Positions 6,848-48,071 of a stretch of DNA of 64,000 nucleotides are shown piece after piece. Source of the stretch: a virus; IMG/VR virus record IMGVR_UViG_3300006734_000008, positions 1-64,000 of that record; one strand, 5' to 3'. The notes beneath the pieces are model-generated. The model was not told the origin of the DNA and did no database searches. It was given only the letters and a program-made list of their open reading frames with translations. Each line of letters starts with the position of its first letter. Position 1 is the first letter of the stretch. The position numbers were made by a program, and so were the translations under genes.

Positions 6848-6909
6848 AATTATAAGTTTTATTATTTATATTTACAAATTTTTTTTGTTTAAAGTTTTTG
6901 GATGTATAG

Positions 6910-25586: not shown

Positions 25587-25603
25587 TTTATGTATTGAAG
25601 TAG

Positions 25604-25627
25604 GGGGAGGTAACTCCCCTTATTTTA
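25604..25627 (+). terminator. rho-independent terminator
   Basis: GGGGGAG-gtaa-CTCCCC hairpin followed by TTATTTT. Confidence 0.5.
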
Positions 25628-25658: not shown

Positions 25659-26972
25659 ATGACACTACTCGGTGTATTGGGACTACTCATTGCAGTGTTC
25701 CTGTTGGCTGTAAGTTCAGTTAACAAACAAATTGACAAGGCTAATGCCCAACGTGAAGAGAATGGTAAACGGGTTAAGCCTGGAGTTCTTGGAGGTCTTA
25801 GCTTAAGTCGTGGTGGAATTGTAAGTTTATTCTTTGCTTCCATCTTACTAATTGTTGCAGGGATTTCAAACCCCTTAGCTAACAATGATGCTGGTAATAG
25901 ACAAGTTGTTCAGACTGTCGATGGTGACCTGTGGGTAAAATTCACTCCTGGATGGTATTGGTGTGGGTTCTTCTCTAAGGTAACTACTTGGCCTAATAAC
26001 GTAACTGTACAAGTATCAGCAGAGGATAAACGGTCACAAGAAGCAGATTATTGGGAGAAAAGACACTCCGCTACATTTGCAGAAGGTGATAATGCCTATG
26101 TTTCTCATACTGTGAAATGGGATTTACCTGTTAATGAGGTTGACATGTTGGAGTTACACACAACTTATAACAACATTGATAACTTAAAACAAACTACTCT
26201 TATCCAGTATCAGAAAGAAACGGCCAGTTACTCATGTCAACGGATGACATCAGAAGAACATTATTCTGGAGGACAGTCACAATTAAAAGACTATTTCCAA
26301 GACCAACTCCGTAATGGACAGGTTCTTTTGGTAACTGAAACTAAGGTGAAGACATTACCTGATTCTTCCACAAAGACTTACATCATTACTGATGAGAAAC
26401 GTGACCAAAATGGTAATATTCTCCGAACTGTATCTGACATTCAGAAGTACAATCTGTTTGCATCATTTGCATCAATTGACCGTGTAAGCTATGACAAGCG
26501 TATTTATGCTAAGCTTAAGGATAAGATTGATGCAGCAGCAGATGAAGCTACCTCGAAACAGCGACTCATTACAGCACAACAGGAAGAGCAAGAGGCCATT
26601 GTAAAGGGTCGAAAGCTTATTGCTGAAGTAACTGCCAAAGAGGAAGCTGATGAGAGACAGTCAGTAATTCGGGCTCGTAAAGCAAAACAGGTAGAACAGG
26701 AAAATGCAGAAAAGGCTAAGTATATTGCACTCAAAGTACAACGAGAGCAAGATGCTAAGGCTGCTGCAAACCGAGCTCTCCGTGCTGCTGGTCTCACGCC
26801 TCAGGAAGAGGCTGAATGGGACTATAAGACTCGGGTTGGTATTGCTGCTGAGTTAGCCAAAGTAAAAGTGCCAAATGTCGTAGTGACAGGTGGAGGCAAT
26901 GGTGGAGCATCACCAATGGATGCCTTGGGTATTAAAATGCTCATGGACATCGAGAAAAGTTTATCCAAATAG
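25659..26972 (+). CDS. membrane-anchored SPFH/band-7-like protein with long Ala/Glu/Lys/Gln coiled coil
   Basis: N-terminal TM helix, central beta-rich domain, C-terminal A/E/K/Q-rich repeats typical of HflK/C/flotillin family tails. Confidence 0.35.
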   Translation: MTLLGVLGLLIAVFLLAVSSVNKQIDKANAQREENGKRVKPGVLGGLSLSRGGIVSLFFASILLIVAGISNPLANNDAGNRQVVQTVDGDLWVKFTPGWYWCGFFSKVTTWPNNVTVQVSAEDKRSQEADYWEKRHSATFAEGDNAYVSHTVKWDLPVNEVDMLELHTTYNNIDNLKQTTLIQYQKETASYSCQRMTSEEHYSGGQSQLKDYFQDQLRNGQVLLVTETKVKTLPDSSTKTYIITDEKRDQNGNILRTVSDIQKYNLFASFASIDRVSYDKRIYAKLKDKIDAAADEATSKQRLITAQQEEQEAIVKGRKLIAEVTAKEEADERQSVIRARKAKQVEQENAEKAKYIALKVQREQDAKAAANRALRAAGLTPQEEAEWDYKTRVGIAAELAKVKVPNVVVTGGGNGGASPMDALGIKMLMDIEKSLSK

Positions 26973-27004
26973 GGTAATACATAGAATAGTTTCATAATTG
27001 GACA

Positions 27005-27033
27005 AAGCCCTCTGAAATATGAGGGCTTTTTTA
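27005..27033 (+). terminator. rho-independent terminator
   Basis: AAGCCCTC-tgaaatat-GAGGGCTT hairpin followed by TTTTTT. Confidence 0.55.
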
Positions 27034-27044
27034 ACTCAGAATGT

Positions 27045-27434
27045 ATGAAAGCATTTTTCTTCACCCTACTATTGTCCTGCTTTACATGGACTAGCTTTTC
27101 TCAAATCGTACAATACGATTATGATAGTACTGCATTTTGTTTTAACTCTAATGTTAAATCATCATGTGTAGATACTTGTTCACCAGCACAACCAGCTTCA
27201 ATAACTCTGAGTGTGGACTTAGACAGTTTTACACTATATTTTAATGGTGAACAACGAGTGTACACATTAGATAAGATGTTCAGCTTTAAAGATGAATATT
27301 TTATTCTAAAAGGTACAGCCCCAAATGATACACAGGTGAAACTTTTCATTTCACCGTACAAGTGTGTATTAGCCAACAATGAATGTAACTTACAATTCAA
27401 GTTTATAGCTTGTAAAGAAGAAGATGATGAGTGA
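27045..27434 (+). CDS. secreted Cys-containing protein
   Basis: Signal peptide MKAFFFTLLLSCFTWTSFS; 129 aa. Confidence 0.4.
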   Translation: MKAFFFTLLLSCFTWTSFSQIVQYDYDSTAFCFNSNVKSSCVDTCSPAQPASITLSVDLDSFTLYFNGEQRVYTLDKMFSFKDEYFILKGTAPNDTQVKLFISPYKCVLANNECNLQFKFIACKEEDDE

Positions 27435-28332
27435 TAAACCTATATTGATGCACAATTATCCTGATGGTACATCTTATTTCAGAACTGATGATGCTAAAAA
27501 ATCAGAGATAGTATGGCGCATCCAAAACTATGAACAACTGTGGCAATTAGCACAGTATGTTGATGCTTTTAGACAATATGATTCAATGAATCGTAGAAAG
27601 CTACAGGTAACTCTTCCTCGTCTTATTGATGCACAGGCTGACTCAAGATTTGGGCGGTATTCTTATAGTCTCAAGATAGTTCTTGATTTTCTTAATTCTT
27701 TAGATGTAGATATTTATGTTATTTATCATCCACACAATCCTCAAGCAGTGGAAATGGGTTTGAATAATGTCGCAATCTTAAAGAATTATACTTTCATTGA
27801 GAAAGTACTTCAAGACTTAGCAATAAATGTATATCATTTACCTGCAGAGTGGGTACATGACCATTATATTACAACTGTAAATGAAAGACTGTATCCTCTT
27901 GTTCATCTTTTAGCTGCTGATGCAGGAGGTTATAAGCCTCTTATGGATACAGTTAAAAGGCTAAGATGGGGAGGTAAGGTTCACTCTGCGTCTAAATCTC
28001 GTGTAGATGGTAAGTTACATCAAATTCTTTCAGTCAATGACTTTAAGGGTAAGGATGTACTCATTGTTGATGATATTTGCGTATATGGTGGAACCTTTAA
28101 AGGTTTAGCCAAATTATTACGAGAGAGAAATGCAGGAAGATTATTCCTGGCTGTCAGTCATATGACTGTACAAAACTTAGGTAAAGATTCAGTAGTACGT
28201 TACTTTGATAGAGTATACACCACCAATAGCACATATGATTACTATATGCATGTTGTTGATGAGGATGGTACTATTGAGGAAAAGCCTGATAATTTGAATG
28301 TAATTGAACTTTTTAACCCTGATAACAGATGA
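27424..28332 (+). CDS. prs: ribose-phosphate pyrophosphokinase-like type-I phosphoribosyltransferase
   Basis: PRPP-binding loop DVLIVDDICVYGGTFKG; two-domain 302-aa size; N-terminal DG-containing segment. Confidence 0.55.
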   Translation: MMSDKPILMHNYPDGTSYFRTDDAKKSEIVWRIQNYEQLWQLAQYVDAFRQYDSMNRRKLQVTLPRLIDAQADSRFGRYSYSLKIVLDFLNSLDVDIYVIYHPHNPQAVEMGLNNVAILKNYTFIEKVLQDLAINVYHLPAEWVHDHYITTVNERLYPLVHLLAADAGGYKPLMDTVKRLRWGGKVHSASKSRVDGKLHQILSVNDFKGKDVLIVDDICVYGGTFKGLAKLLRERNAGRLFLAVSHMTVQNLGKDSVVRYFDRVYTTNSTYDYYMHVVDEDGTIEEKPDNLNVIELFNPDNR

Positions 28333-29807
28333 ATCCATTTTTAGGAACTGATGGGTACAAAACAGGTCACATGCCTATGTATCCAGAGGGAACAAGTTTG
28401 GTTGTATCCAACTTTACACCTCGAAGCAATAAGTATGCACCAAATGGAATAGACAGCGTAGTTGTCTTTGGACTCCAAATGGTCATGCATCAAATACACG
28501 ATGGTTTTCAACGTGATTTCTTCAATCAACCCAAAAGAGCAGTCTGTAATGAGATTAAAGACGAGTATTCCATGTACCTAGGTATGGATTATGATGTCTC
28601 TCATATCGAAGCCCTGTGGGATTTAGGTTTTCTCCCTATTGAAATGAAAGCCTTGGAAGAAGGAACGTTGTGTCCCATTGGTGTACCCGTGTTAACCATT
28701 AAGAATACTTATGAAGAGTTCTTCTGGTTGACAAACTTCCTGGAGACTTTAATCTCCAACTTGTTGTGGAAACCTATTACATCCGCAACAATTGCCCTTG
28801 AGTTCAAGAAAGTACTCACTAAATGGGCACTCAAGACCGATGCTGATAATGTCGGCTTTGTGGATTTTCAAGGACATGATTTCTCTATGAGAGGCATGGA
28901 CTCCCTCGAAGCTGTCATTAGTTCAGGATTAGGTCATGCAACAAGCTTCTTAGGTTCTGATAGTTTGCCAACAATACATGGCGCCAGAAAATACTATCGT
29001 GAACCTGATGGAGTGATTTACTCAGTAAATGCTACCGAGCACTCAGTGATGTGTGCTGGTGGTCATGAAACTGAAATTGACACATTTCGTAGGCTTATGT
29101 CTATCTTTCCTAAAGGTATTCTCTCCATTGTATCTGATACATGGGACTTGTGGAAAGTGTTGACAGCTTATTTGCCTGAATTACATGATGAAATTCTTGC
29201 AAGAGATGGTAAAATTGTCATTCGTCCTGATTCTGGTAATCCTGCTGACATCCTTTGTGGAACTGTAATGGATGACCGAGAAGACATGAAAACTTTACCT
29301 GAACACAAAGGTGTAATTGAACTCCTTTGGGATGAATTTGGTGGAACTGTAAATGAGCAGGGATACAAAGTTCTAAATCCTAAGATTGGAGCAATCTATG
29401 GAGACTCTATCACCTTGGAAAGAGCTGAAGAAATATGTCAACGGTTGGAACAGAAAGGCTTTGCAAGTACTAACGTGGTACTGGGCATAGGAAGCTTTAC
29501 TTACCAGTTCAACACTCGTGACACTTTTGGTTTTGCTATGAAAGCAACTTATGTAGAAATTACAGATGCCGAGGGAAAAGTAATTGGTAGAGAAATCTAC
29601 AAAGACCCTATTACTGATGACGGAACTAAAAAGAGTGCCAAGGGACTACTTCAAGTTGTGAAAACCGCTGATGGTCTTGTATTAAAAGACCAAGTAAGTT
29701 GGTTAGAAGAAAGAGAGGGGGAACTCCAAACAATCTATGAGGATGGACTATTCTTCAACCCAACAACTTTAACCCAAATCAGGGAGCGTGTCGCAGCCTT
29801 GGTTTAA
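28329..29807 (+). CDS. nadV: nicotinamide phosphoribosyltransferase (NadV/NAMPT family)
   Basis: N-terminal GTDGYKTGH motif, about 490 aa, type II PRTase-like architecture; ATGA overlap with prs-like gene. Confidence 0.65.
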   Translation: MNPFLGTDGYKTGHMPMYPEGTSLVVSNFTPRSNKYAPNGIDSVVVFGLQMVMHQIHDGFQRDFFNQPKRAVCNEIKDEYSMYLGMDYDVSHIEALWDLGFLPIEMKALEEGTLCPIGVPVLTIKNTYEEFFWLTNFLETLISNLLWKPITSATIALEFKKVLTKWALKTDADNVGFVDFQGHDFSMRGMDSLEAVISSGLGHATSFLGSDSLPTIHGARKYYREPDGVIYSVNATEHSVMCAGGHETEIDTFRRLMSIFPKGILSIVSDTWDLWKVLTAYLPELHDEILARDGKIVIRPDSGNPADILCGTVMDDREDMKTLPEHKGVIELLWDEFGGTVNEQGYKVLNPKIGAIYGDSITLERAEEICQRLEQKGFASTNVVLGIGSFTYQFNTRDTFGFAMKATYVEITDAEGKVIGREIYKDPITDDGTKKSAKGLLQVVKTADGLVLKDQVSWLEEREGELQTIYEDGLFFNPTTLTQIRERVAALV

Positions 29808-29817
29808 ACTGTCGCAA

Positions 29818-29844
29818 GGGGAGGCTTAGGTCTCCCCTTTTTTT
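29818..29844 (+). terminator. rho-independent terminator
   Basis: GGGGAG-gcttaggt-CTCCCC hairpin followed by TTTTTTT. Confidence 0.6.
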
Positions 29845-29847
29845 CAA

Positions 29848-30222
29848 ATGTATACAGCATTAATCATTGGATTTTTGGTCTATCATTATTTGGCAGACTA
29901 TATCCTTCAGGATTTAGACACTAGGCAAAGTAAGTCTAGTCAGCTAGATACTCTAATAAGACATGTGAGTATTTACTCATTCTCTTATATTCCACTTATT
30001 CTTATTCTTACTGTAGGAGTAGGTTTTACTCATTGGATGTGGTTGTTTATACCCATAACTCTTGTAACTCACTACATTATTGATAGTATTACAAGCCGTG
30101 TATCAACCAGATATCTTCAAGAAGACAGAATGTGGGAAGCTGTAAATGTAATGGGTCTTGACCAATTACTACACAACATAAGGATTATTCTAACCGTTTA
30201 TTTGATTCTATTATGGGGATAA
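29848..30222 (+). CDS. integral membrane protein
   Basis: 124 aa, four hydrophobic helices. Confidence 0.4.
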   Translation: MYTALIIGFLVYHYLADYILQDLDTRQSKSSQLDTLIRHVSIYSFSYIPLILILTVGVGFTHWMWLFIPITLVTHYIIDSITSRVSTRYLQEDRMWEAVNVMGLDQLLHNIRIILTVYLILLWG

Positions 30223-30326: not shown

Positions 30327-30400
30327 ACACTCATAGCTCAATTGGATAGAGCGACAGCCTTCTAAGCTGTAGGTTATAGGTTCGACTCCTATTGGGTGTA
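30327..30400 (+). tRNA. tRNA-Arg (anticodon TCT)
   Basis: Acceptor ACACTCA/TGGGTGT, D-arm GCTC-AATTGGATA-GAGC, anticodon arm ACAGC-CTTCTAA-GCTGT, T-arm ATAGG-TTCGACT-CCTAT, discriminator A. Confidence 0.8.
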
Positions 30401-30492
30401 CAACACTAGGTCGCACAGGCGTAGGGATTTAATAATTATAGATGATAAATATAGTCGCCTACAGAGAGTTGAAATACTTTCTCTAGTGGTAT

Positions 30493-30578
30493 GCAGGAGT
30501 GGTGGAATTGGTAGACACGCAGGACTTAAAATCCTGTGAGCAGTAATGTTCGTGAGGGTTCGACTCCCTCCTCCTGCA
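30493..30578 (+). tRNA. tRNA-Leu (anticodon TAA), type II with long variable arm
   Basis: Acceptor GCAGGAG/CTCCTGC, anticodon arm CAGGA-CTTAAAA-TCCTG, long variable arm, T-arm GAGGG-TTCGACT-CCCTC. Confidence 0.8.
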
Positions 30579-30592
30579 CTAAAAAAACAATA

Positions 30593-30925
30593 ATGACTTT
30601 ACAAGAACTAAAAGATTGGCAACTGAACTTTAAAGAAAGAGTTTGGGAAGGTTATTCTCCTAAACTTAACTTTAGAGGTAAAAGAACACTTAAAATTAAT
30701 GGTGTTAGCTTTTGGGAAGATTCTTCTATTGGAACTATAGATTTTTCATATAAGAAAATGTATGGTTTCTTAAGTCCTGACAATGGTCTATATAGTGGAG
30801 ATAATTATTATCCTATCATTAAGGGTATTTTATGTAGAACTATGGGTGGAACAGTTTCTGGTGGAAAAAATCTTGAAGAATTTGCCTCAGCAGTAAAAGA
30901 ATATTGGAAATACTTTATATCATGA
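30593..30925 (+). CDS. hypothetical protein
   Basis: Track ORF 30536 overlaps tRNA-Leu; first ATG after tRNA is 30593 (MTLQELK). Confidence 0.4.
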   Translation: MTLQELKDWQLNFKERVWEGYSPKLNFRGKRTLKINGVSFWEDSSIGTIDFSYKKMYGFLSPDNGLYSGDNYYPIIKGILCRTMGGTVSGGKNLEEFASAVKEYWKYFIS

Positions 30926-31070
30926 AAGCAGGATTTCTTTTTCGATGGTGGAGTTTCTGGATAGGGCTCCACTATTCAAAGTTCAACAAAAGACTGTGCA
31001 TCAATATACTTCCCTGTTGCACAATTTGGATAGTTTTTGAGGGAGGTAAAGAACCAATAATCAAAAATCT

Positions 31071-31286
31071 ATGAGTTATCGTAATAATTTAGTTAGAAAA
31101 AAGGTAATAATTGCTTTTATAGCCTTTACCCTAACCCTTTGGATAGGGGCTTCAATTACTTGGGGAGAGTCTAATGTCCTTTGTTGGCATGAGTGTGCTC
31201 CTGATGGTAGACAAGCTGTCCCCGTTGTTACTTGGATAATCTTGAATATCATACTTGTTTGGTATTATATAGTTGAAGCGGATTAA
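31071..31286 (+). CDS. small membrane protein
   Basis: 71 aa, two TM helices. Confidence 0.35.
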   Translation: MSYRNNLVRKKVIIAFIAFTLTLWIGASITWGESNVLCWHECAPDGRQAVPVVTWIILNIILVWYYIVEAD

Positions 31287-31299
31287 TACTTAATTAAGA

Positions 31300-32607
31300 A
31301 TGCTCAAGAAAAGCGACCAGTTTAACCCTAACTATTTAGCTAAGGTTGTTAAACTAAAGGGATTACAGAAACATTCTAATGCAGATAGGCTACAAACCTG
31401 TCTCATAGACTTTCAAAATGTAATCACTGACATGAAAGCAAAAGATGGAGATATCTATGTATACTTTCCTGTGGAGTGTCAGATTAATAAAGACTTTCTT
31501 TCTAAGACTAATAGTTTTAGAGACAAGACTCTCAATACAGAACCAGATGAAGGTGGGTTCTTTGAAAAGCATTGTAGAGTCAAAGCCATGAGCCTCAGAG
31601 GTGAGAGGAGTATGGGATATATTGTACCAGCTAATCATGTATTTGAATGGGCTGGTGTCAATAAAAATCCATCAGATTTTGTTAATACTGAGTTTGATAC
31701 TATCAATGAGAAGTTGCTTCTCAAGAAATACATCAAAAAGGTCAACAAACATGATGGACCACCTAACAAAAAAGGCAAAAAACCAGCCCTGTCAAGACTG
31801 ATTGAGGGACAAGTACATTTACATGTAGATACTGATAATCTCAGAAAATACATGTCTAATATCAAGCCATCAGATACTATCTCTATTACCTATAAGACAC
31901 ATGGAACCTCGTGGTGGGTCAGTAATGTGCTAGTAAAGAAGAAGTTAAATTGGATTGAGAAAGTACTCCTTAATCTTGGTGTTAAGATACAAACAGAAGA
32001 GTATGATTTGGTCTATGGTTCAAGACGAGTAGTTAAGAATAAACAGTTCGAAGACCCAAAGGGACAAGACCACTTCTATGGCTATGATTTGTGGAAAGAC
32101 ATCAAAGATGAGATTGGATACAAAATTCCTAAAGGCTTTACTCTCTATGGAGAGATGATAGGCTATGATAAGGAAGGAAATTTCATTCAAAAACCATTTG
32201 ATTATGGTTGCAGACCAGGAGAACACAAACTTGAAGTGTATAGAATAACTTATACTAATCCAAATGGAGTAGTTATGGAGTTGTCTACACCACAGATAGT
32301 TGAGTTCTGTTTGAGAAACAGATTGAATCCATCTTACAGGTATTTTACAGGTAAAGCGAGAGATTTATATCCTCAACTGCATACTGGTGAGTATTGGCAT
32401 GAAAAATTCATCTCTAATTTAGAGGATGACTATGCTAATGGTGAAAGATGTTTTAGGTGTAACAACAAGGTTCCTGCTGAAGGTATATGTCTCAGAGTTG
32501 AAAGACTCTATGAATATGAGATTTATAAGTTGAAAAGCTTTGAATTTCTTGAATTTGAGACTAAACAACTTGATGCAGGAGAATCTAATATTGAGGATAC
32601 CGCATGA
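31300..32607 (+). CDS. putative ATP-dependent RNA ligase (covalent nucleotidyltransferase, Rnl5-like KxHG type)
   Basis: Motif I-like ITYKTHGTS, motif IV-like EGICLRVE, motif V-like YKLKS, about 190-aa N-terminal extension; neighbours are Pnk kinase and phosphoesterase. Confidence 0.45.
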   Translation: MLKKSDQFNPNYLAKVVKLKGLQKHSNADRLQTCLIDFQNVITDMKAKDGDIYVYFPVECQINKDFLSKTNSFRDKTLNTEPDEGGFFEKHCRVKAMSLRGERSMGYIVPANHVFEWAGVNKNPSDFVNTEFDTINEKLLLKKYIKKVNKHDGPPNKKGKKPALSRLIEGQVHLHVDTDNLRKYMSNIKPSDTISITYKTHGTSWWVSNVLVKKKLNWIEKVLLNLGVKIQTEEYDLVYGSRRVVKNKQFEDPKGQDHFYGYDLWKDIKDEIGYKIPKGFTLYGEMIGYDKEGNFIQKPFDYGCRPGEHKLEVYRITYTNPNGVVMELSTPQIVEFCLRNRLNPSYRYFTGKARDLYPQLHTGEYWHEKFISNLEDDYANGERCFRCNNKVPAEGICLRVERLYEYEIYKLKSFEFLEFETKQLDAGESNIEDTA

Positions 32608-32999
32608 AACGTGATGACCTATTAGAGAAATTGCGTGAGATGCAAAATTTACCTACAAGAGATGAACTGTTTCGTTGGATACAGTCTCTTCCAAAAGATA
32701 AACATCTTGGTACACCTGAACAATTCAAAGTTGGTGATATATTTATGCATCCAATCTTCAATCATCCATATGTTCTTCTAAAGAAGACAAATGATGGTTA
32801 TCTTTGTACACTTATGACTTCAGATGGTGAGTTTGCAGAGGTACTTACTCAATGTAAATCTAGGTTCTTTAGCGATTCTTTTATTGTGAAGAATCTCTTT
32901 GAACGACAAAATATCTCTCAAGATGCCTTCATGGGTATCTATGATAATAACAAACATCTGAAAGAAGTTTTAAAACAGTTACAAACCGTAATGTCATAA
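32604..32999 (+). CDS. hypothetical protein
   Basis: 131-aa ORF between ligase and kinase, overlapping stops/starts. Confidence 0.4.
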   Translation: MKRDDLLEKLREMQNLPTRDELFRWIQSLPKDKHLGTPEQFKVGDIFMHPIFNHPYVLLKKTNDGYLCTLMTSDGEFAEVLTQCKSRFFSDSFIVKNLFERQNISQDAFMGIYDNNKHLKEVLKQLQTVMS

Positions 33000-33472
33000 T
33001 GCCTAAGTTAATCATACTTATTGGACCTTCGGGCTCAGGTAAATCTACCTGGGCTCATGAGGCCCATATAAAAGACCCTAACAATGTTGTTATTGTCAAT
33101 AGGGACAAGATTCGCGAGTTACTCTTTGGTTATCTTGAAGATAACATTAAAGAGTATTACCTTCGACATGACTTTCCTGCAAGAGAGAAAGAAGTTACAA
33201 TATATGAAAATATATTGATACACAGCTCTCTTAATCTAAACAAAACAGTCATTGTTGATGCTACACATCTAAAACTCAAATACCTTAAAAGATATGATGT
33301 CTTGAAAGATAAGGGAATTGATGTGGAATACAAGTATTTCGATGCTGATATGGGTACTCTATTAGAGCGTCAGACCCTACGTATTCGTAAGGTAGGCAAA
33401 GAGATACTTGAAAGACAATTGGATATGTATCACAAGCTACAAAACAATCCTCATGCGATTAAATACAAATGA
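32999..33472 (+). CDS. pnk: polynucleotide 5'-kinase (T4 Pnk kinase-domain-like P-loop kinase)
   Basis: IILIGPSGSGKSTWAHE Walker A and downstream VNRD, closely paralleling the T4 Pnk kinase domain N-terminus. Confidence 0.55.
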   Translation: MPKLIILIGPSGSGKSTWAHEAHIKDPNNVVIVNRDKIRELLFGYLEDNIKEYYLRHDFPAREKEVTIYENILIHSSLNLNKTVIVDATHLKLKYLKRYDVLKDKGIDVEYKYFDADMGTLLERQTLRIRKVGKEILERQLDMYHKLQNNPHAIKYK

Positions 33473-35053: not shown

Positions 35054-35461
35054 TTGTCAAGAGTATTCAATACCTTTCGAATGAAACTCATAATTGCAGG
35101 TAGCAGAGACTTTACAGACTATGCTCATCTTAAGCATATATTGTTAAATAACTACGATATTGCTGAGATAAGTGAGATTGTCTCAGGCACTGCAAGAGGA
35201 GCTGATAGATTGGGGGAAAAGTTTGCCAAAGAGCATTCTATTCCCCTTCGTCAGTTTCCTGCAGACTGGGATAAACATGGTAAATCTGCAGGATATATCC
35301 GTAACAAACAAATGGCTGACTATGCTGATGCATTGGTAGTATTTTGGGACGGACGTTCAAAAGGAACAAAACACATGATAAATCTGGCTAACTTAGCTGG
35401 ATTAAATGTGAAAATCTTCTTATACGGCTTTGAAGCCAGTTTACAGAAGAAACTATTTTAG
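35054..35461 (+). CDS. SLOG-superfamily (DUF2493/YspA-like) Rossmann-fold protein
   Basis: IIAGSRDF...VSGTARGADRLGE...VVFWDG pattern typical of DprA/LOG-like SLOG domains common in phages. Confidence 0.45.
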   Translation: MSRVFNTFRMKLIIAGSRDFTDYAHLKHILLNNYDIAEISEIVSGTARGADRLGEKFAKEHSIPLRQFPADWDKHGKSAGYIRNKQMADYADALVVFWDGRSKGTKHMINLANLAGLNVKIFLYGFEASLQKKLF

Positions 35462-40430: not shown

Positions 40431-41466
40431 TAGCTATGGCTACAGGAACTGGTAAAACAAAAGTAGGAATTGACTACGTTGAATTGCTAAAGAACAAGGG
40501 AAGAGGAGAATCCTTTGGGTTGTACCCACAGAGAAACTCCGAGATGAAGGGATTAAACAAGAATTTGTTAAGTGGGGTTCTGATTTCAGCAAAGTCCATC
40601 TCGTATGTTATGCCAGTCTCAACAAACTAGAGGGTTATGAATTTGACCTAGTAGTTCTTGATGAATGTCATAGAATTACTGAAAACAATTATCAATTTTT
40701 TCAACAGAACAAGGTAGGAAATACCATTGGTTTGTCTGCAACACCACCTCATGAAGAGGTTAAAAGGTCATTGTTAGAGTCTATTGGTTTAAAAGTGGTT
40801 TACCATTTACCATTAGATGAAGCAGTTGCTTTAGGAATAGCAGCACCATATAAAATCAAGATTATAGAGTCTTTCTTAGATGATAAAGAGAAGTATATCT
40901 TAGCTGGTAATAAGAAGAATCGTTTTTATACGACCGAAATGCAGCAGTATCAATACTTGTCTAATCAAATAAGGAGAATAATGTTCTCAGGTAAGGATGT
41001 ACCTAAGTACTTATACCTTAACAGAATGAGATTTATCTATAATTTGAGAAGTAAGCATAATGTAGCCACTAGGTTATTGGCTTCACTTCCAAAAGAAGAC
41101 CGAATCCTTATATTCCATAAATCAATTCCTAGAATTGATGAGTTGTGTGCTCACACTTTTCATTCTAAGACTAATGATGAGGCATATAAGAAGTTCATAG
41201 AGGGCAAAATAAGCCGTTTAGGAGTAGCTGATAAGGTCAATGAAGGTACTAACATACCTAATGTCGATAAAGCCCTTGTAGTGCAATTAAATAGCCAACC
41301 AAGAGAACTTATCCAACGTCTTGGACGTATCGTAAGATGGAGAGAGGGACATCAAGCAGAATTTTATATTATGCAGGTGTTACAAACTCAGGATGAGAAA
41401 TGGGTAGCTAAAGCATTGCAGGACTTAGATGGACCTGTTGAATACATAAATGCAAAAAACATTTAG
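40361..41466 (+). CDS. SF2 DExH-box helicase, interrupted by a -1 frame change near 40483-40520
   Basis: Motif I MATGTGKTK in frame of 40361; motifs Ia ILWVVPT, II DECH, III SAT, VI QRLGRIVRW in the frame of 40732; both frames are open across 40483-40630. Confidence 0.55.
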
Positions 41467-42122
41467 TGGAACAACTGAACGTTTATGTTGTAGGAGGAGC
41501 TTTAAGCTATATAGGTGTCTTAAATGGCTTAGATATTAAGCCTAGAGATACTAAAGTACTAACTGAGGCAGATTTAGTTCTGTTTACTGGTGGTGCTGAT
41601 GTGTCACCTAAGTACTATGGTGAAAAGTTTCACCCAACAACATATGCAAACCCAAAACGTGATGAATTAGAGGCAAGAGTCTTTGCTATGGCATCAGCTA
41701 TGAAAATACCTATGTTGGGTATTTGTAGAGGTTCGCAGTTTCTTACAGTCATGAATGGTGGAAAACTAGTGCAAAATGTGTCCAGTCACGCAATGGTTGG
41801 AAAGCACTCAGTTAGATTCAATAAGAAGAATAATGGCGTTAAAATTGCCATGACTTCTACACATCACCAAATGATGTATCCATATAATCTACCAAAGGAT
41901 GAATATGAATTAGTTGCTTGGGCAGAACCAAGCCGTAGCTCCTTGTATGAGCGTGGTGATGGAGAAACCTATACTGTTCAAAATGAGCCTGAGATAGTTT
42001 ACTATCCAAAAAGTAACTCTTTGGCTATTCAAGGACATCCAGAAAGACAACTCAGTGATGGAATTGTCATGGGAGTAATGGGTTACATCATCAACAAGTA
42101 TCTATTTGATGAAATTCTTTAA
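41466..42122 (+). CDS. class-I glutamine amidotransferase-like / peptidase C26 (gamma-glutamyl hydrolase-type) protein
   Basis: Catalytic triad context GICRGSQFL (Cys) and IQGHPE (His-Glu). Confidence 0.55.
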   Translation: MEQLNVYVVGGALSYIGVLNGLDIKPRDTKVLTEADLVLFTGGADVSPKYYGEKFHPTTYANPKRDELEARVFAMASAMKIPMLGICRGSQFLTVMNGGKLVQNVSSHAMVGKHSVRFNKKNNGVKIAMTSTHHQMMYPYNLPKDEYELVAWAEPSRSSLYERGDGETYTVQNEPEIVYYPKSNSLAIQGHPERQLSDGIVMGVMGYIINKYLFDEIL

Positions 42123-42855
42123 TAAGATTCGTATGGGCAAAGCTGGGAATTTTAGAGTAGAAGGTGGTGTATTAAATGAAAAGGGAAAGTTTGATTCAAA
42201 TCCTGCAACACAAGCGTGTTTTTCTTTTATAAAAAGACATTGTGATGATAGGAAGGAAATCCTTTTTCATACTAAGGGGGGAGAGACTCCAGAGATAACT
42301 GAACAATTAGTTAAAATCATCAATTTAATCACACCATGTGAGATAATTGAACCAGATTTTAACAAACTTAAGCCTGAGTATAAACTTAACGATAACTGGG
42401 GAAAACATCTTGATACGCTTTATAACAATCAAATAGGAATAATCACTCAAAAGTCAACAGTATGGATTAAGTACAAGCTTTTACTTAGTTATAAACATAA
42501 CTTGATTTTATTGAATTTCTTTCGAAGTCTCTGGTATATGCCTAGAGATACTGGAAAGAGTCGTAGACACTTGTTTCAGAATGCTAAGTTTTTTAAAGGA
42601 TTGTTTAAATTCGATGTTGAAAAGCATGACCCTATGAGTTTTTTACTAACTCTATGGGATAATTGTTTACACAAAAAGCGAGTATTCACTACTGAGGAAT
42701 TTAATCACTCTAATGTTACTGCAAAATCAATTAAAACTGGTCTTACAGTAGAGGAATTTCTTAGAGAAGCTAATGATGAGAGGTATAAGCAATCAACTGA
42801 TGGATGGTCTAGTGACCATAAAATAACAACACAAGCCAAAATCATATGCCACTGA
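42106..42855 (+). CDS. hypothetical protein
   Basis: 249-aa ORF. Confidence 0.4.
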   Translation: MMKFFNKIRMGKAGNFRVEGGVLNEKGKFDSNPATQACFSFIKRHCDDRKEILFHTKGGETPEITEQLVKIINLITPCEIIEPDFNKLKPEYKLNDNWGKHLDTLYNNQIGIITQKSTVWIKYKLLLSYKHNLILLNFFRSLWYMPRDTGKSRRHLFQNAKFFKGLFKFDVEKHDPMSFLLTLWDNCLHKKRVFTTEEFNHSNVTAKSIKTGLTVEEFLREANDERYKQSTDGWSSDHKITTQAKIICH

Positions 42856-43052
42856 TTAGTAAAAAGGTTGAGACTGTTGATGAGTTTTTTATCAGACAAT
42901 CTCAAGAAAGAAGAAAGGAATATGACGCTGCAAAGGAACAAGCAATGCTTGATATGCAGGATGAAGACCTTCGCGATGAATTTGAGGAACAAATGTTCCT
43001 TGAACGGTACAATAATTTTGTTTATTAGTAAAAAAAGGAGTACATTTGTAAA

Positions 43053-43538
43053 ATGGATAATGATAAATTACTTCAATTGTGCGATGTTCTTGGAGTGCTT
43101 AGGCAACTTGAGAATAGAGGATATGTTGAAAGAGGAGATGGAGAAGTAATTTTCACAAAGAGAGCAGAAGAAGCTCTCGCAGAGGTGAATGCTAAAAAGT
43201 TAACACCTAAGTTGAAAGAAGTTGTTGAATGGATAGATGAATACAGAAGTCTATTCCCTTCAGGAGTAAGAAGTGGAGGTTATCTAGTCAAGGGTTCTAA
43301 ACAAGCTTGCATCAAAAAGATGCGTCAGTTTTTGAAAGAATACCCTGAATATGATAAAGACCTTATACTCGAAGCAACACACCGCTATGTAGAAAGAAAA
43401 GCCAGGGAAAACTACAAGTATATGCAGTTGGCACACTATTTCATTTTAAAAGATGGAGCATCCAATTTGGCTGCAGAGTGTGAACAAATTGCAGATGGTT
43501 TTGTAGAGCCTGAAAACCCATTTGAACAAACAATGTAG
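43053..43538 (+). CDS. hypothetical protein
   Basis: 161-aa ORF. Confidence 0.4.
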   Translation: MDNDKLLQLCDVLGVLRQLENRGYVERGDGEVIFTKRAEEALAEVNAKKLTPKLKEVVEWIDEYRSLFPSGVRSGGYLVKGSKQACIKKMRQFLKEYPEYDKDLILEATHRYVERKARENYKYMQLAHYFILKDGASNLAAECEQIADGFVEPENPFEQTM

Positions 43539-44637
43539 TATGTTTAAGGATACGTTAAGTAAAATTAGGCAATCTGCAGAAAATTTGGACAAGGGTCTTA
43601 TTAACAATATCCCATTTGCTAGCTTTCCAAAATTAGCTAGTCATGTTCCAGGAATTGTTAAAGGCTTATACTATATAGTCACGGCATCTAGTGGTATTGG
43701 GAAAACCCAGTTTACCAAGAGATTGTTCGTATTGGAACCTTACATGTTTGTTAAGGAATGTAAATCTGATGTTAAACTCAAGATTATGTACTTCGCTTTA
43801 GAAGAAAGTAAAGAAGAGTTTATGTTAGGTCTCATTAGTAACAGACTTGCTATGGTTTATAACATCCATGTTAGTGTAATTGAGTTACAATCATTCACTG
43901 ACAGACTCGACCAAAACATTATTGATAAGATTGAAGAGTGCCAAGAGTACTTTGAAGACTTTGAAAAGTATGTTGAGGTTATAGATACGGTGTATAATCC
44001 AACAGGTTTGTATAAACATGTGAGAGAATATGCTGATAGAAATGGTACGCATCACTTTAGAGATGTAGAGTACGGTGGTAAAGTTCATAAGATATATGAC
44101 TACTATGAACCTGATGACCCAAATGAGTTTGTAATTGTAATTACAGACCATGTTAGTCTCCTACAAGAGGAGAAAGATAGGGAAACTGGTCATATGATGA
44201 ACAAACACCAGACTATTAGCAAATGGTCTGCAGACTATTGCAGAAAACAAATATCCAAGAATTTTGGATATACAGTTGTTAATGTACAACAGCAAGCTGC
44301 TGAGAAAGAGAAGCAGGAATTTTACAGAGGTAACAGCGTAGAAGCTAAACTCGAACCATCTTTAGATGGACTAGCTGACAACAAGTTAACTCAGCGTGAT
44401 GCTTTTGTAGTATTGGCACTGTACGCACCTGATAGGTACGAAATTAAGAGACACCTAAAGTATGATACTTCTATATTAGGAGATAATTATAGGGCTCTTA
44501 AAGTGTTAAAAAACAGATTGGGTAGACCAAACCTCAAGGCTGGTTTATTTTTCGATGGAAAAGTAAATGAGTTCATGGAGTTACCACCACCCAATTCTAG
44601 TGAAATCGAAAATTTTTATAACAGAGAAAAAAGTTAA
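43522..44637 (+). CDS. DnaB-like replicative DNA helicase (RecA-fold domain)
   Basis: Walker A TASSGIGKTQF, Walker B-like VIVITDHVSLL, about 370 aa. Confidence 0.5.
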   Translation: MNKQCSMFKDTLSKIRQSAENLDKGLINNIPFASFPKLASHVPGIVKGLYYIVTASSGIGKTQFTKRLFVLEPYMFVKECKSDVKLKIMYFALEESKEEFMLGLISNRLAMVYNIHVSVIELQSFTDRLDQNIIDKIEECQEYFEDFEKYVEVIDTVYNPTGLYKHVREYADRNGTHHFRDVEYGGKVHKIYDYYEPDDPNEFVIVITDHVSLLQEEKDRETGHMMNKHQTISKWSADYCRKQISKNFGYTVVNVQQQAAEKEKQEFYRGNSVEAKLEPSLDGLADNKLTQRDAFVVLALYAPDRYEIKRHLKYDTSILGDNYRALKVLKNRLGRPNLKAGLFFDGKVNEFMELPPPNSSEIENFYNREKS

Positions 44638-45230
44638 TGACAGAATTAGTGAAGATGGAAGACCATAAGGACTTCTTGCAAACGTTGATTGATAGCAAGA
44701 AACTACCTGGTCATGTGAAAAGTGTAGAAGATGCATTTACAATTGCTCAAATGGGAAAGGAATTAGGATTCGCTGCAATGCAGTCATTCCATTATATCAT
44801 TCCTATCCAAGGAAAGCTGAGTTTATCAGCTAAGGGTATTGGTGCATTATTACGTAAAGGAGGAGTAGAATTTGTCACTACTGAAGATGGAGTGTATGTT
44901 TACAGTGATGGGACTACGAGTGAGTATCCCAAAGAAGGTGATGACAAACCTGTAGATAGGAGAACAACTATTGTTTTCTATCGCAATGACAAGGAAGAGA
45001 CTTGTTCTTTTACTTGGAAAGAGGCTACAGGAATGGGACTTACCACCAAGGACAATTGGAAAAAGATGCCAAAGTTCATGTTATGGGCTCGTTGTTTATC
45101 AAAGGGTGCTAACAGAGTTGGGGCAGATTTTCTATTAGGTCTGTACTGCACAGAAGAATTGTTCGACCATATGGAAGGTGTCCAAGCGGTTCGAACTGAA
45201 GAAGGAGAAATTATTGAAATTAAAGACTAA
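44637..45230 (+). CDS. hypothetical protein, possible recombination/annealing factor
   Basis: 197 aa, located between helicase and SSB; weak resemblance only. Confidence 0.25.
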   Translation: MTELVKMEDHKDFLQTLIDSKKLPGHVKSVEDAFTIAQMGKELGFAAMQSFHYIIPIQGKLSLSAKGIGALLRKGGVEFVTTEDGVYVYSDGTTSEYPKEGDDKPVDRRTTIVFYRNDKEETCSFTWKEATGMGLTTKDNWKKMPKFMLWARCLSKGANRVGADFLLGLYCTEELFDHMEGVQAVRTEEGEIIEIKD

Positions 45231-45234
45231 GACT

Positions 45235-45954
45235 ATGAATTGGGATAATATAGAATTCAGACAAGAAAGAAAGCTTTACACAGGACCGTGTAGAGTAAAA
45301 GTGGTAGCGGTTAATCCAACTAAAGATGAGCTTTGTGCTCTTCTAGGATTAGACCCAGAGAGAACTAATGACCCTACTTATGATGGTAGGATTGATGTTT
45401 ATGTTAAAAATGAAGAGCATAACATCACAACTAAGATTGCATTCTTTGTAGATGGTGATGATGTACCACCTGCAGGAAACGGTAAGATTAAGTATATCAA
45501 CCAGTATGGTAGAACTGCTTATCTTGCTAATCCAGATGACACATCTGAGTTAGATTGGTTCTCTAGAACAGGTTTGAGACCTGCCAAGAATGGAGAAGAG
45601 GAGCTTTATGCTTTCTTCATTAATTGGATTAATATTGACGCAGAGAAGGGTAAATTTGTCCTTCCTTACGAAGATATTGCCAATGGAAATATTGATGTTT
45701 TCACAGGAGCTTTAGAACGATTTGGTGACAAAGAGTTCGTGGGACTGTTAGGAGTAACTAAAGGTAAATACCAAGCAATGTATGCTAAGGACTTTGGTCG
45801 CACTTTTAACAAGAAATTCAATAAAGTTCAATGGAAAAATCATGATTTCACCACTGATTTCCAAGAGTATGTGAAACCTGCAGAACCTGACACAATGGAA
45901 GGTGAAGTAGAATTTGCTGCTAGTGGAGATGGAGGTGATGAATTACCATTCTAA
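45235..45954 (+). CDS. ssb: single-stranded DNA-binding protein
   Basis: C-terminal acidic tail GDGGDELPF matching canonical SSB D-D-D-I-P-F tip; start at ATG 45235 after upstream stop. Confidence 0.5.
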   Translation: MNWDNIEFRQERKLYTGPCRVKVVAVNPTKDELCALLGLDPERTNDPTYDGRIDVYVKNEEHNITTKIAFFVDGDDVPPAGNGKIKYINQYGRTAYLANPDDTSELDWFSRTGLRPAKNGEEELYAFFINWINIDAEKGKFVLPYEDIANGNIDVFTGALERFGDKEFVGLLGVTKGKYQAMYAKDFGRTFNKKFNKVQWKNHDFTTDFQEYVKPAEPDTMEGEVEFAASGDGGDELPF

Positions 45955-46007
45955 TCTGAACAGTAAGTACTTAATCAGGGACTCTCAAAAGGAGTCCCTT
46001 TTTTTGT

Positions 46008-46973
46008 ATGAAAGACCAAATACTTAAGCGAATAACCCAGGAGGATATCTATGCCAGATACTTTCCTGATGAGATAGCACTCCAGACAAGGTATTGTAAT
46101 CCTACTAGAATTGATAAAAATCCAGATTGTTATTTTACATATATCAATGACAGATTGATGTTTGTAGATTTTGGGGGAGACCCTACACATATGGATTGTT
46201 TTAGGTTCATTCAAGAATACTTTGATATATCATTCTATGAGGTATTAACTATCATCTCTAAGGACTTTGGTCTAGGCTTACATAAAATTGAATCATTAGA
46301 TGAAGAAATTGTAACGCCTCAGACAAGAAAAAAACTTGTCCTGAACAAACCTACGCAAGTAGAGAAAGAGACAGTAATCAAAGTAGTGAATCAACCCTTT
46401 CAACGGGCTGATTTGGATTATTGGGCTCAATTTGGGATTAGCCTAGAGACATTAGTTAATTACAATGTCAGGGCTGTCTATCGCGCTTGGATTAATGGAG
46501 ACTTTTACCATGAATACAAAGCTTATGACCCAATGTATAGATACAAAGAACAAGATAAGTTCAAACTGTACAGACCATTGGCAGATAAACGTTATAAGTG
46601 GAGAACTAATATGTCAGGTGGCGTATTAGAAGGGTGGTCACAACTTCCTGATAAGGGCAATCTTCTGATTGTCACTAAGTCTAGGAAAGATGTGATGACT
46701 TTACATGAGTTAGGCTATGCTGCTGTAGCAGTTAGGTCTGAATCATCTCCTGTATCTGAAAATGCTGCAGCATTATTGAATCAGAGATTTGGTAAAATCA
46801 TTCTTTGGTTTGATAATGATAAAGCAGGTATTAAGTATTCAGACAAACTAAGTGATAAATATGGTTGGGAGACCATTAGTTTTCCAACTGGATTTCCAAA
46901 AGACCCGTCAGACTATGTTAAAGACTACGGGCAAACTGAACTTTTAAATTTCATTAAGAACATTTATGAATAA
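46008..46973 (+). CDS. DNA primase (TOPRIM domain)
   Basis: TOPRIM signature LLIVTKSRKD...E...ILWFDNDKAG; N-terminal Cys/His cluster. Confidence 0.55.
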   Translation: MKDQILKRITQEDIYARYFPDEIALQTRYCNPTRIDKNPDCYFTYINDRLMFVDFGGDPTHMDCFRFIQEYFDISFYEVLTIISKDFGLGLHKIESLDEEIVTPQTRKKLVLNKPTQVEKETVIKVVNQPFQRADLDYWAQFGISLETLVNYNVRAVYRAWINGDFYHEYKAYDPMYRYKEQDKFKLYRPLADKRYKWRTNMSGGVLEGWSQLPDKGNLLIVTKSRKDVMTLHELGYAAVAVRSESSPVSENAAALLNQRFGKIILWFDNDKAGIKYSDKLSDKYGWETISFPTGFPKDPSDYVKDYGQTELLNFIKNIYE

Positions 46974-47721
46974 TATATTCACATTAGGAGCAGACCCAGA
47001 AGCATTTCTGTATAATACAGACCTGGAGATGTATGTTCCTTCCGAGTTGTATTTTCATGGCACTAAGGATGAGCCAGAAGATTTAGCACCAGGCTATGCC
47101 GTATTATGTGATAATCTAATGGTTGAATTTAACATCCCGCCAGCAAGTACAAAGTTGGATTTTGTAGCTAATTTGAACCAAGCTATTGAATTTATCCAAC
47201 AAAAACTACCAGAAGAGGTAGAAATCAGGTTCAACAACTCGGCAGTGTTCAGTGATAAAGCATTGCAATTCCCAACAGCTAATATGTTTGGATGTGCTCC
47301 ACAAGAGAACATGTACAACATTATGCTGTTATGTCCCGATGACTTCCCACCAAACGTGAGATTTGCAGGTGGACATATTCATGTAGGAATGAAGATTAAT
47401 AATCTCAAAAAGATGATTAAGCTCTTTGACCTGCATATTGGATTGCCTTTGGCTGCTGCTGAACCTCGTACAGAACTCTCTAGGAGAGATATCTATGGTG
47501 CTCCAGGCACTTATAGAACTACCTCTTATGGTTTTGAGTATCGCACCCCTTCATGTGAATGGTTACAAAGTAACGACAAGATTGAGTGGGTATGGGATAG
47601 TGTGGAGAGGATTGTCGAAGACTACCACAATGAAGGAATATTTTTACCTGATGACAATGAAGTCTTTCAGGCATTTGAACAGCCAGAATTGGCTAGGGAA
47701 TTAATTGCAGATTACGCATGA
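46966..47721 (+). CDS. GS-like carboxylate-amine ligase (amidoligase-type) protein
   Basis: E-x-E-like NLMVEFN, GGHIHVG (H-x-H), GFEYRTP (E-x-R) as in glutamine-synthetase/GCS2-like amidoligases. Confidence 0.4.
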   Translation: MNNIFTLGADPEAFLYNTDLEMYVPSELYFHGTKDEPEDLAPGYAVLCDNLMVEFNIPPASTKLDFVANLNQAIEFIQQKLPEEVEIRFNNSAVFSDKALQFPTANMFGCAPQENMYNIMLLCPDDFPPNVRFAGGHIHVGMKINNLKKMIKLFDLHIGLPLAAAEPRTELSRRDIYGAPGTYRTTSYGFEYRTPSCEWLQSNDKIEWVWDSVERIVEDYHNEGIFLPDDNEVFQAFEQPELARELIADYA

Positions 47722-48071
47722 GAATTGCTGTATATGGAACACTGCGAAGAGGTTGGGGAAACAATCGCTTATTAGCAGACTCAAAGTTTGTTGACGCAGG
47801 AAAAACAAAGGAGAAGTATACTATGTATGCTAGTGGGATACCTTTTGTATCATCACATAAGCCTACATCTAATATTCATGTAGAAGTATTCGATGTTCCT
47901 GAAGAAGATGTACCAAGAGTAGATGGGTTAGAGGGACACCCAAATTGGTATCAAAGAAGACCCATACAAGTAATACTTGATTCTGGAGAAGAAACAACTG
48001 CAGAATTGTATTTTATGGATGGAGAAAGAGGTCTCCCTGTTGTAGAAAGTGGAAACTATGAAGACGCCTAA
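47718..48071 (+). CDS. gamma-glutamyl cyclotransferase-like (AIG2/GGCT fold) protein
   Basis: N-terminal IAVYGTLRRGWGNN matches YGSL-x-x-G-x-x-N GGCT signature; 117 aa. Confidence 0.55.
   Translation: MRIAVYGTLRRGWGNNRLLADSKFVDAGKTKEKYTMYASGIPFVSSHKPTSNIHVEVFDVPEEDVPRVDGLEGHPNWYQRRPIQVILDSGEETTAELYFMDGERGLPVVESGNYEDA

Follow-up and report, generated by a model that had tools for sequence, protein, structure and literature searches.

The closest described systems are the NAD+ reconstitution pathway 1 (NARP1) operons of phages SPbetaL1 (Adps WIT26982 and Namat WIT26983; PDB 9w5w/9w5x), FADO and Bas63 (genes 79-80), in which two abutting or overlapping genes encode Adps and then Namat (Osterman et al. 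2024; Lan et al. 2026). Osterman et al. (2024; bioRxiv 10.1101/2024.02.11.579819) began from the same Pfam labels that are met here, and tested and rejected a reading in terms of phosphoribosyl pyrophosphate (PRPP) and nicotinamide mononucleotide (NMN). They reported that the purified Adps of SPbetaL1 yielded no measurable product in a PRPP-synthesis assay and converted ADP-ribose (ADPR) plus ATP to ADPR pyrophosphate (ADPR-PP), that Namat turns ADPR-PP and nicotinamide directly into NAD+ and prefers ADPR-PP to PRPP, and that counter-defence of the NARP1 type is independent of pncC and nadR. NARP2 (KVP40 NadV + NatV) employs a phylogenetically distinct Nampt that always needs an Nmnat, and no phage carrying both pathways was found by these authors (10.1101/2024.02.11.579819). 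The Adps of the Vibrio phage ICP1 has been solved in apo, ADPR/ATP and ADPR-PP/AMP states, and its functional residues have been named (Liu et al. 2026, PMC13586617). Here we describe two overlapping genes, ORF1 and ORF2, in the IMG/VR virus record IMGVR_UViG_3300006734_000008; positions are those of the stretch analysed, nucleotides 1 to 64,000 of that record (the window). With a probability of roughly 0.86 the two genes form a NARP1 operon in an uncultured phage of the crAss-like group.

ORF1 (27424..28332, +) encodes 302 amino acids (aa) of an Adps-like, PRPS-fold enzyme, a predicted ADP-ribose pyrophosphokinase, and ORF2 (28329..29807, +) encodes 492 aa of a Namat, a predicted nicotinamide ADP-ribose transferase. 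Public gene callers start ORF1 at the second of two adjacent ATG codons (27427), which gives 301 aa. An earlier sequence-only reading of the window had reported the two ORFs, the peptides GTDGYKTGH (ORF2 residues 6-14) and VLIVDDICVYGG (ORF1 residues 212-223), and an ATGA in which the ORF1 stop overlaps the ORF2 start; the ORFs and peptides are present as quoted, and the overlap is real and can be read at 28329..28332 (+). The operon is closed by a strong intrinsic terminator (29816..29846, +) 9 nt past the ORF2 stop, with a 10-bp stem that has six G-C pairs, a 4-nt loop and a T-run. Thirteen contigs, up to 102,410 bp long, encode an identical ORF1 protein. Since the capsid protein matches PF23898 Crass_capsid and the nearest DNA matches are Bacteroides crAss-like phages, the window was assigned to an uncultured Crassvirales genome of some 102 kb with 37% G+C.

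Profile searches gave homology to PRPS-like and NAMPT-like families far beyond chance, ORF1 matching PF00156 (6e-8) and phrog_619 (9.5e-32), and ORF2 matching PF04095 (8.6e-40), PF18127 NAMPT_N (1.1e-7) and phrog_448 (6e-188). In phages, NARP1 is recognised by a Prs-like gene that stands beside a NAMPT-like one, so that database labels referring to PRPP and NMN mislead. The description of the pair as NadV coupled to a Prs-like enzyme accordingly survives at the level of family homology, but not in its assignments: ORF2 has the clamp and the clade of Namat, and ORF1 lies below every Prs threshold.

Comparison of ORF2 with PDB chains (phmmer) gave 494 bits to 9w5x/9w5w, confirmed as SPbetaL1 Namat (100% identity to OQ921341), and the NAMPTs of Xanthomonas and mammals scored about 212 bits; in the reciprocal control, the KVP40-like Nampt of phage VH7D scored 405 bits with Xanthomonas, 360 with human and 242 with Namat. 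In an 18-sequence alignment ORF2 was 51.5%, 50.9% and 43.8% identical to the validated Namats of SPbetaL1, FADO and Bas63, respectively, and 29-33% identical to six Nampts (KVP40-like, Klebsiella, Burkholderia, Rhizobium, Xanthomonas and human). The neighbour-joining (NJ) tree constructed from this alignment with 200 bootstraps placed ORF2 inside the Namat clade together with SPbetaL1, FADO and Bas63 (100% bootstrap). Across 2046 GenBank phage records the ORF2 homologues fell into two groups, 36-53% identical (Adps-linked) and 28-31% identical (T4-like/KVP40-like Nampts).

The specificity of Namat for ADPR-PP has been ascribed to a selectivity-clamp helix (SCH) motif plus a variable loop with Arg, Lys or Tyr as its third residue (Lan et al., PMC12774641). 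The ORF2 helix, G388-S-F-T-Y-Q-F-N-T-R-D398 (29490..29522, +), is an exact fit to GS-X-Phi1-X-Phi2-X-Phi3-TRD, with F390 and F394 in the adenine-stacking positions (SPbetaL1 F392 and Y396); six of the six Nampts of our reference panel read GG[GA]LLQ at this place. The selectivity-clamp loop (SCL) reads PRSNKYAPNG and includes K35-Y36 (28431..28436, +), where K35 aligns with SPbetaL1 R40 and the Lys-then-aromatic arrangement corresponds to the type reported for Bas63 and FADO (PMC12774641); the loop exceeds in length that of the panel Nampts, human NAMPT excepted. Analysis of the catalytic core revealed that D8, Y10, F185, R188, D211, R299 (codon 29223..29225, +) and D301 match SPbetaL1 D13', Y15', F189, R192, D215, R306 and D308. 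The R306G and R306A replacements in SPbetaL1 Namat abolished NAD+ synthesis and counter-defence (Osterman 2024; PMC12774641). The catalytic His of ORF2, in an ATEHS motif, is aligned with that of SPbetaL1 in the HMMER alignment, and the Namat-type S186 and S360 are also present. ORF2 resembles SPbetaL1 Namat in the type of its SCH motif, in its catalytic residues and in its clade; judged by its sequence it is a canonical Namat, predicted to prefer ADPR-PP and to form NAD+ directly.

PDB 9ke8/9keo, deposited as 'nicotinamide phosphoribosyltransferase', also falls within the Namat clade, where it joins the Staphylococcus phage, FADO and SPbetaL1 at 97% bootstrap. It reads GAQTYQRNTRD, with no aromatic at either adenine-stacking position, and was not found in GenBank phages, where its best match was 58% identical.

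Analysis of ORF1 with the curated Prs models revealed that all their thresholds (113-518 bits) were missed; the best scores were 48.2 and 46.2 bits (the second for TIGR01251) against cut-offs of 296 and 113, while the E. coli Prs control reached 423-532 bits. The scores for TIGR01251 and phrog_619 were 46 and 111 bits for ORF1, 106 and 248 for the validated Adps of SPbetaL1, 97 and 246 for FADO and 139 and 333 for Bas63, as against 423 and 193 for E. coli Prs, so that the balance between the Prs and the phage hidden Markov model (HMM) goes the same way in ORF1 as in the validated Adps and the opposite way to E. coli Prs. When searched against the Prs chains of the PDB, one validated Adps gave 57 bits and ORF1 44 bits. 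In a profile-profile comparison (hhalign) of the 67-member ORF1 clade, the Adps panel scored 218.5 (E 6e-32) and the Prs panel 102.4 (E 3e-14).

Alignment of ORF1 with the Adps of SPbetaL1 and ICP1 placed its predicted catalytic lysine, the beta-hairpin residue K191 (codon 27994..27996, +), opposite SPbetaL1 K162 and ICP1 K185, whose replacement by Ala abolishes activity (Osterman 2024 and PMC13586617, respectively); K191 is kept in at least 90% of the ORF1 clade. The ICP1 residues H121, D161, D212/D213, F18 and F92 correspond to H104, D166, D216/D217, Y12 and F76 of ORF1. The ORF1 PP loop, D216-D217-I-C-V-Y-G-G-T-F225 (28069..28098, +), is a donor-phosphate loop of the Adps type (roles from PMC13586617), in which C219 is equivalent to Adps C215 and F225 to the Adps lid Phe221. 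At PP-loop position 217, Thr occurs in four of the four panel Prs and never in the panel Adps; ORF1 has Y221 here, and like SPbetaL1, FADO and the Staphylococcus phage it combines an aromatic at this position with the catalytic Lys. At lid position 221, ORF1 shares Phe with all panel Adps, and the Prs have Leu or Ile. The ribose-5-phosphate loop, D(T/S)-T-G-G-T in Prs, reads V-Y-G-G-T in ORF1.

The AlphaFold2 model of ORF1 (mean predicted local distance difference test score, pLDDT, 89.2; predicted template-modelling score, pTM, 0.88) has a two-domain PRPS-like fold like that of ICP1 Adps, and its top Foldseek matches were all PRPP synthetases, with template-modelling (TM) scores of 0.61-0.71. 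DSSP assigned no helix of four or more residues beyond residue 234, and the chain stops six residues past the last strand. As modelled, ORF1 is, like ICP1 Adps, without the C-terminal alpha11-alpha12 module, the regulatory C-terminus of PRPS, whose loss is a defining signature of Adps (Liu et al., PMC13586617). With class I Prs/PRPS1 (E. coli b1207, PDB 4s2u/7xmu/8dbe) ORF1 shares the fold, the catalytic Lys, the PH/LH His, DxGG and the DD pair, but it is only 14-20% identical to them and has neither the DTGGT Thr nor the C-terminal filament/allosteric module. Among the 150 representatives nearest to ORF1, the Prs-type Thr at 217 occurred in none and the Adps-type Phe at 221 (GGTF) in nearly all; with growing distance the relatives shade into the canonical Adps motifs (ARQDR/ARMDR + DDICDGGxTF) and never into Prs. 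From its profile relationships and modelled fold ORF1 is Adps-like and not a true Prs, and pyrophosphorylation of ADPR is its predicted reaction.

The genomic neighbourhood of ORF1 relatives was also examined. A Namat homologue was found within 5 kb and on the same strand in 36 of the 39 IMG/VR loci encoding a protein of the ORF1 clade, none of which held an Nmnat, and each of the metagenomic relatives inspected (L010-L016) had a NAMPT-like neighbour. The clamp segments recovered from IMG/VR loci were all of the Namat type (GS...TRD), 22 of 26 with an aromatic (or Cys) at both stacking positions. As published, a Namat gene lies within 10 genes for 97% of the Adps clade, and in the window ORF2 overlaps ORF1 itself. 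Because the intergenic gap in the relatives ranges from 5 to 2831 nt and either gene order occurs, the ATGA overlap is a local trait of this phage, one that the module as such does not conserve. The Namats that partner ORF1-type genes form a sub-clade of their own (86% bootstrap), a grouping that suggests co-divergence of the Adps-like/Namat pair.

Among phages of the same virus order, the crAss-like Bacteroides phages DAC15, DAC17, cr85_1 and Kolpuevirus 'frurule' encode Namats to which ORF2 is 50-53% identical; for DAC15, DAC17 and cr85_1, carriage of NARP1 is already recorded in Osterman's supplementary tables (10.1101/2024.02.11.579819). Unlike the window phage they have the reversed order, Namat then Adps, and their Adps belongs to another lineage, with 26% identity to ORF1, an SMRMDR motif that has the Arg, and no insertion. 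The host of the window phage is presumably a member of the Bacteroidota, as compared with Bacillus or Escherichia for SPbetaL1, FADO and Bas63.

Several side observations were made in these loci. In relative L016 a 130-aa ORF without a Pfam match (6884-7276) stands between the Adps-like and Namat genes. A Metallophos (calcineurin-like) phosphoesterase gene lies directly upstream of the pair in L014 (5196-5954) and L015 (224-913); the Metallophos gene of the window phage (54873-55640) is 25 kb from the pair. As a partner, Metallophos would be an accessory distinct from the published NARP1-associated phosphatase, which belongs to the Macro-domain proteins. Adps proteins match positions of about 8-224 of the 547-aa profile phrog_12872 and ORF2 matches 362-540, a pattern that suggests natural Adps-Namat fusion proteins in phages.

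The window was scanned for other genes of NAD+ metabolism with Pfam, PHROGs being used only for nine ORFs of the structural block. None of the approximately 90 window ORFs scanned contained a CTP_transf_like, NUDIX, Macro, PnuC or NadR domain, and tblastn and phmmer searches of the window with two phage Nmnat/Nudix proteins gave no match, while these controls found each other at 1e-34. Earlier it had been stated that no NMN adenylyltransferase or Nudix partner is visible in the window, which is borne out by these searches, and a scan of the rest of the genome for NatV, NadM or Nudix proteins had been proposed. Beyond the window, 10 kb to the left and about 7.4 kb to the right were inspected, and some 87% of the 102,410 bp was covered in all; in the precomputed Pfam listings of the examined flanks, domains of the Nmnat, Nudix, Macro, PnuC and NadR types were absent. 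Since Namat makes NAD+ directly, a 'missing' NatV or Nmnat is expected, and no host enzyme would have to fill a gap.

Two related pathways were ruled out by the lack of Macro, PnuC and NadR domains in the window: NARP1-AP, which is recognised by a gene for a Macro-domain protein (Adpp phosphatase) within two genes of the NARP1 pair, and NARP3, recognised by a PnuC-like transporter plus a NadR-like bifunctional enzyme. No Macro Pfam match was obtained in any window ORF, including those flanking the pair (27045-27434 and 29848-30222). Membership in a defence system was likewise rejected, as PADLOC returned only a 33-residue PRTase-loop match to ShosT.

The identification of the pair as NARP1 has to be weighed against a number of observations that speak the other way. 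Identity between ORF1 and the validated Adps is only 21-26%. In pairwise BLASTP ORF1 scored 59 bits with Sulfolobus Prs, 55 with ICP1 Adps and 50-65 with Adps overall; our own 9-sequence Adps HMM failed to part it from Prs, and the NJ node joining all Namat-linked PRPS-like proteins had 25% bootstrap, the topology itself agreeing with Adps. Because these three approaches do not discriminate, we relied on the profile-profile comparison, the structural signatures, the synteny and the continuum of neighbours. For ORF2, Namat enzymes keep a PRPP-to-NMN activity in vitro (PMC12774641), so that some NMN output would be possible, and the search for NAD+ genes spans about 87% of the 102-kb genome, with about 13.5 kb outside it. 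A further opposing point lies in the RF-loop motif of ORF1, Q71-A-D-S-R-F76 (27634..27651, +), which in canonical Adps and Prs is A-R-x-D-R. ICP1 R87, which contacts the adenine of ADPR, is replaced by Q71, the residue being Arg in all panel Adps and Prs references. Ser74 is also unusual: the string DAQADSR is unique among 120 database relatives, 93 of which have DAQADRR. In the flag region Glu is replaced by Ser17, found in at least 90% of the clade. Finally, a subfamily-specific insertion of about 22-26 aa between the N- and C-terminal domains (about residues 133-158; 27820..27897, +), modelled as two short helices (141-146 and 150-156), occurs throughout the ORF1 subfamily and in none of the aligned Adps and Prs references.

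ORF1 thus differs from the Adps of SPbetaL1, FADO and Bas63 (21-24% identity) by Gln71, Ser17 and an insertion of about 22 aa, and from ICP1 Adps by Q71 in place of R87, G227 in place of F223, a PP-loop centre of V-Y-G-G-T instead of D-G-A-A-S, a shorter beta-hairpin and the extra inter-domain insertion. The subfamily is, as far as sequence comparison can place it, divergent and known only from metagenomes. No GenBank phage protein exceeded about 30% identity to ORF1; a phmmer search against 1.84 billion representatives returned 29 clusters when the E-value limit was 1e-30 and 320 when it was 1e-10, and the lineage numbers no fewer than 489 clusters at 90% identity and 29 at 50%. The Gln variant is limited to the nearest 60 or so representatives. 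Q71, R75 and F76 (ICP1 F92) are invariant in 68 clade members.

Such features could be expected if the subfamily used another acceptor (a modified ADPR, for instance) or another nucleotide donor, in a NARP1 variant that would still end in NAD+ or a close analogue. Two adenosine-pocket residues have shifted together (Q71 invariantly, S17 nearly so), the insertion is clade-wide, the Gln is confined to the closest relatives, the partner Namats form a separate sub-clade, and the subfamily is absent from GenBank phages, its signature peptides not being found among the listed rows of the Osterman tables. The clamp and catalytic core of the partner Namat are canonical, however, which argues that the intermediate would still be ADPR-PP; the catalytic and ribose-binding residues of ORF1 are all conserved, F76 and Y12 keep the aromatic adenine contacts, and the neighbouring, clade-invariant R75 may stand in for Arg87. 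We therefore consider this variant decidedly unlikely. The kindred proposal that ORF1 represents a third Adps-like lineage, restricted to uncultured phages, with a rewired adenosine pocket and a different acceptor/donor specificity, which would make the pair a distinct NARP1 variant, we regard as an unlikely one. If it were true, the lineage might take modified ADPR produced by non-canonical NADases, or another NTP donor.

A more conventional explanation is that ORF1 makes PRPP and ORF2 makes NMN from ribose-5-phosphate, ATP and nicotinamide, the host NadD, NadR and PncC finishing the synthesis. This is what the database labels say: phrog_619 is named 'ribose-phosphate pyrophosphokinase', phrog_448 and PF18127 point to NAMPT, ORF2 exceeds the cut-off of NF006629 (530 bits against 405), and the fold of ORF1 is that of PRPS. 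Yet 46-48 bits is far from Prs cut-offs of 113-518, the DTGGT-loop Thr and the alpha11-alpha12 module are missing, ORF2 carries the adenine clamp for ADPR-PP that Nampts do not have and sits in the Namat clade at 100% bootstrap, and homologous operons gave no measurable product in the PRPP assay and provided counter-defence without pncC or nadR (Osterman 2024). We hold this explanation to be very improbable. The Namat clamp, the Adps-type PP loop and the lost C-terminal module speak against the proposal that the phage supplies a Nampt plus the source of its PRPP, and the idea that NMN is handed to host NadD or NadR is superseded, as enzymes of the Namat type make NAD+ directly and an absent NatV is what would be expected.

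The KVP40 NARP2 pathway, in which NatV is an Nmnat-Nudix protein, shares with the present pair the NAMPT fold and the nicotinamide/ribose-phosphate catalytic core of ORF2, and both pathways counter NAD+ depletion. If ORF2 were a Nampt of this kind it would use PRPP and need an Nmnat (NatV or NadM-Nudix), for which the 13.5 kb of the 102,410-bp contig beyond the scanned part would leave room. ORF2 is, however, 29% identical to the KVP40-like Nampt, which has GGGLLQ and a shorter SCL, and it lies outside the NARP2 Nampt clade and lacks GG[GA]LLQ; an Nmnat occurs in the same genome in 94% of cases by the published criterion for a NARP2 Nampt, whereas no Nmnat or Nudix gene was found in about 87% of this genome or in the 39 related loci, and Osterman et al. 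saw no phage with both pathways. There is little to recommend the NARP2 explanation, and we give it hardly any weight. That ORF2 might be PncB, a nicotinate phosphoribosyltransferase salvaging nicotinic acid, was also considered in the sequence-only reading and can be dismissed almost outright: NF006629 and many GenBank phage homologues bear that name, but the true PncB models TIGR01513, NF006415 and NF006696 gave 15-19 bits against cut-offs of 243-503, a NAMPT_N domain is present, the nicotinamide-binding Asp is kept (D211, SPbetaL1 D215) and the PDB matches listed were all NAMPT/Namat-family chains.

Under the NARP1 assignment the pair would act once a host defence of the SIR2, TIR or SEFIR type has cleaved NAD+. 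ORF1 would pyrophosphorylate the terminal ribose of ADPR with ATP to give ADPR-PP, and ORF2 would exchange the pyrophosphate for nicotinamide to give NAD+, with no NMN and no adenylyltransferase involved. The ATGA overlap would allow translational coupling by termination-reinitiation. We infer these activities, and a counter-defence role in vivo, from the sequences, the model and the analogy with the characterised operons; countering of NAD+-depleting defences, which had been offered as an alternative function, is the one shown experimentally for this kind of gene pair (Osterman 2024).

Upstream of ORF1, two genes (25659-27434, +) apparently belong to the same transcription unit, and a terminator-like site is located at 25602-25620. 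One encodes a 437-aa membrane/coiled-coil protein (phrog_11908); the other (27045-27434) encodes 129 aa with a signal-peptide-like N-terminus, its stop overlapping the ORF1 start by 11 nt. Band_7/prohibitin genes were seen near NAD+ genes in relative L014 and in Rhizobium phage B1VFA. Directly past the NARP1 terminator a gene for a DUF3307 membrane protein (29848-30222, +; phrog_2470, PHROGs category 'moron/auxiliary metabolic gene') keeps its place in all copies of this phage. We know of no link between the DUF3307 protein and NAD+ metabolism.

Farther downstream, an RNA-repair-like module beside tRNA genes (30327-33472, +) comprises tRNA-Arg(TCT) (30327-30401, +), tRNA-Leu(TAA) (30493-30579, +), an RNA ligase (31300-32607, +; phrog_968) and an AAA_33 kinase-like protein (32999-33472, +), and may counter anticodon nucleases. 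A YAcAr/YspA SLOG-family protein (35054-35461, +; PF10686, 5.5e-15) belongs to a domain class predicted to bind nucleotide-derived ligands. A phiEco32-like amidoligase/peptide-modification cluster (41466-52758, +) holds genes for Peptidase_C26/GATase (41466-42122, +), COOH-NH2 ligase (46966-47721, +), ATP-grasp (48049-48879, +), class II GATase (48879-50921, +) and Amidoligase_2 (50887-52758, +), and a GGACT gamma-glutamyl cyclotransferase was matched among the small window ORFs. In the flanks inspected beyond the window there are tail genes as well as giant genes encoding 1359 and 4220 aa. The right end of the window truncates the 1359-aa gene to a 1005-aa ORF (60936-64000, -), and the 4220-aa gene that follows it (region of the two genes, L067:10788-20567) runs on for about 7.5 kb further; neither giant gene had a Pfam match.

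The labels 'Prs' and 'NadV' lead to a metabolic interpretation that is plausible yet outdated. As a NARP1 operon, the pair would equip the phage against NAD+-depleting immunity (SIR2, TIR, SEFIR), presumably in Bacteroidota hosts. The finding adds an environmental crAss-like phage to the carriers of NARP1, and its practical value is modest. One feature is of specialist interest: it flags a large uncharacterised Adps subfamily that is without an otherwise conserved substrate-contact Arg and that would be a useful test of the recent sequence-structure rules for Adps annotation.

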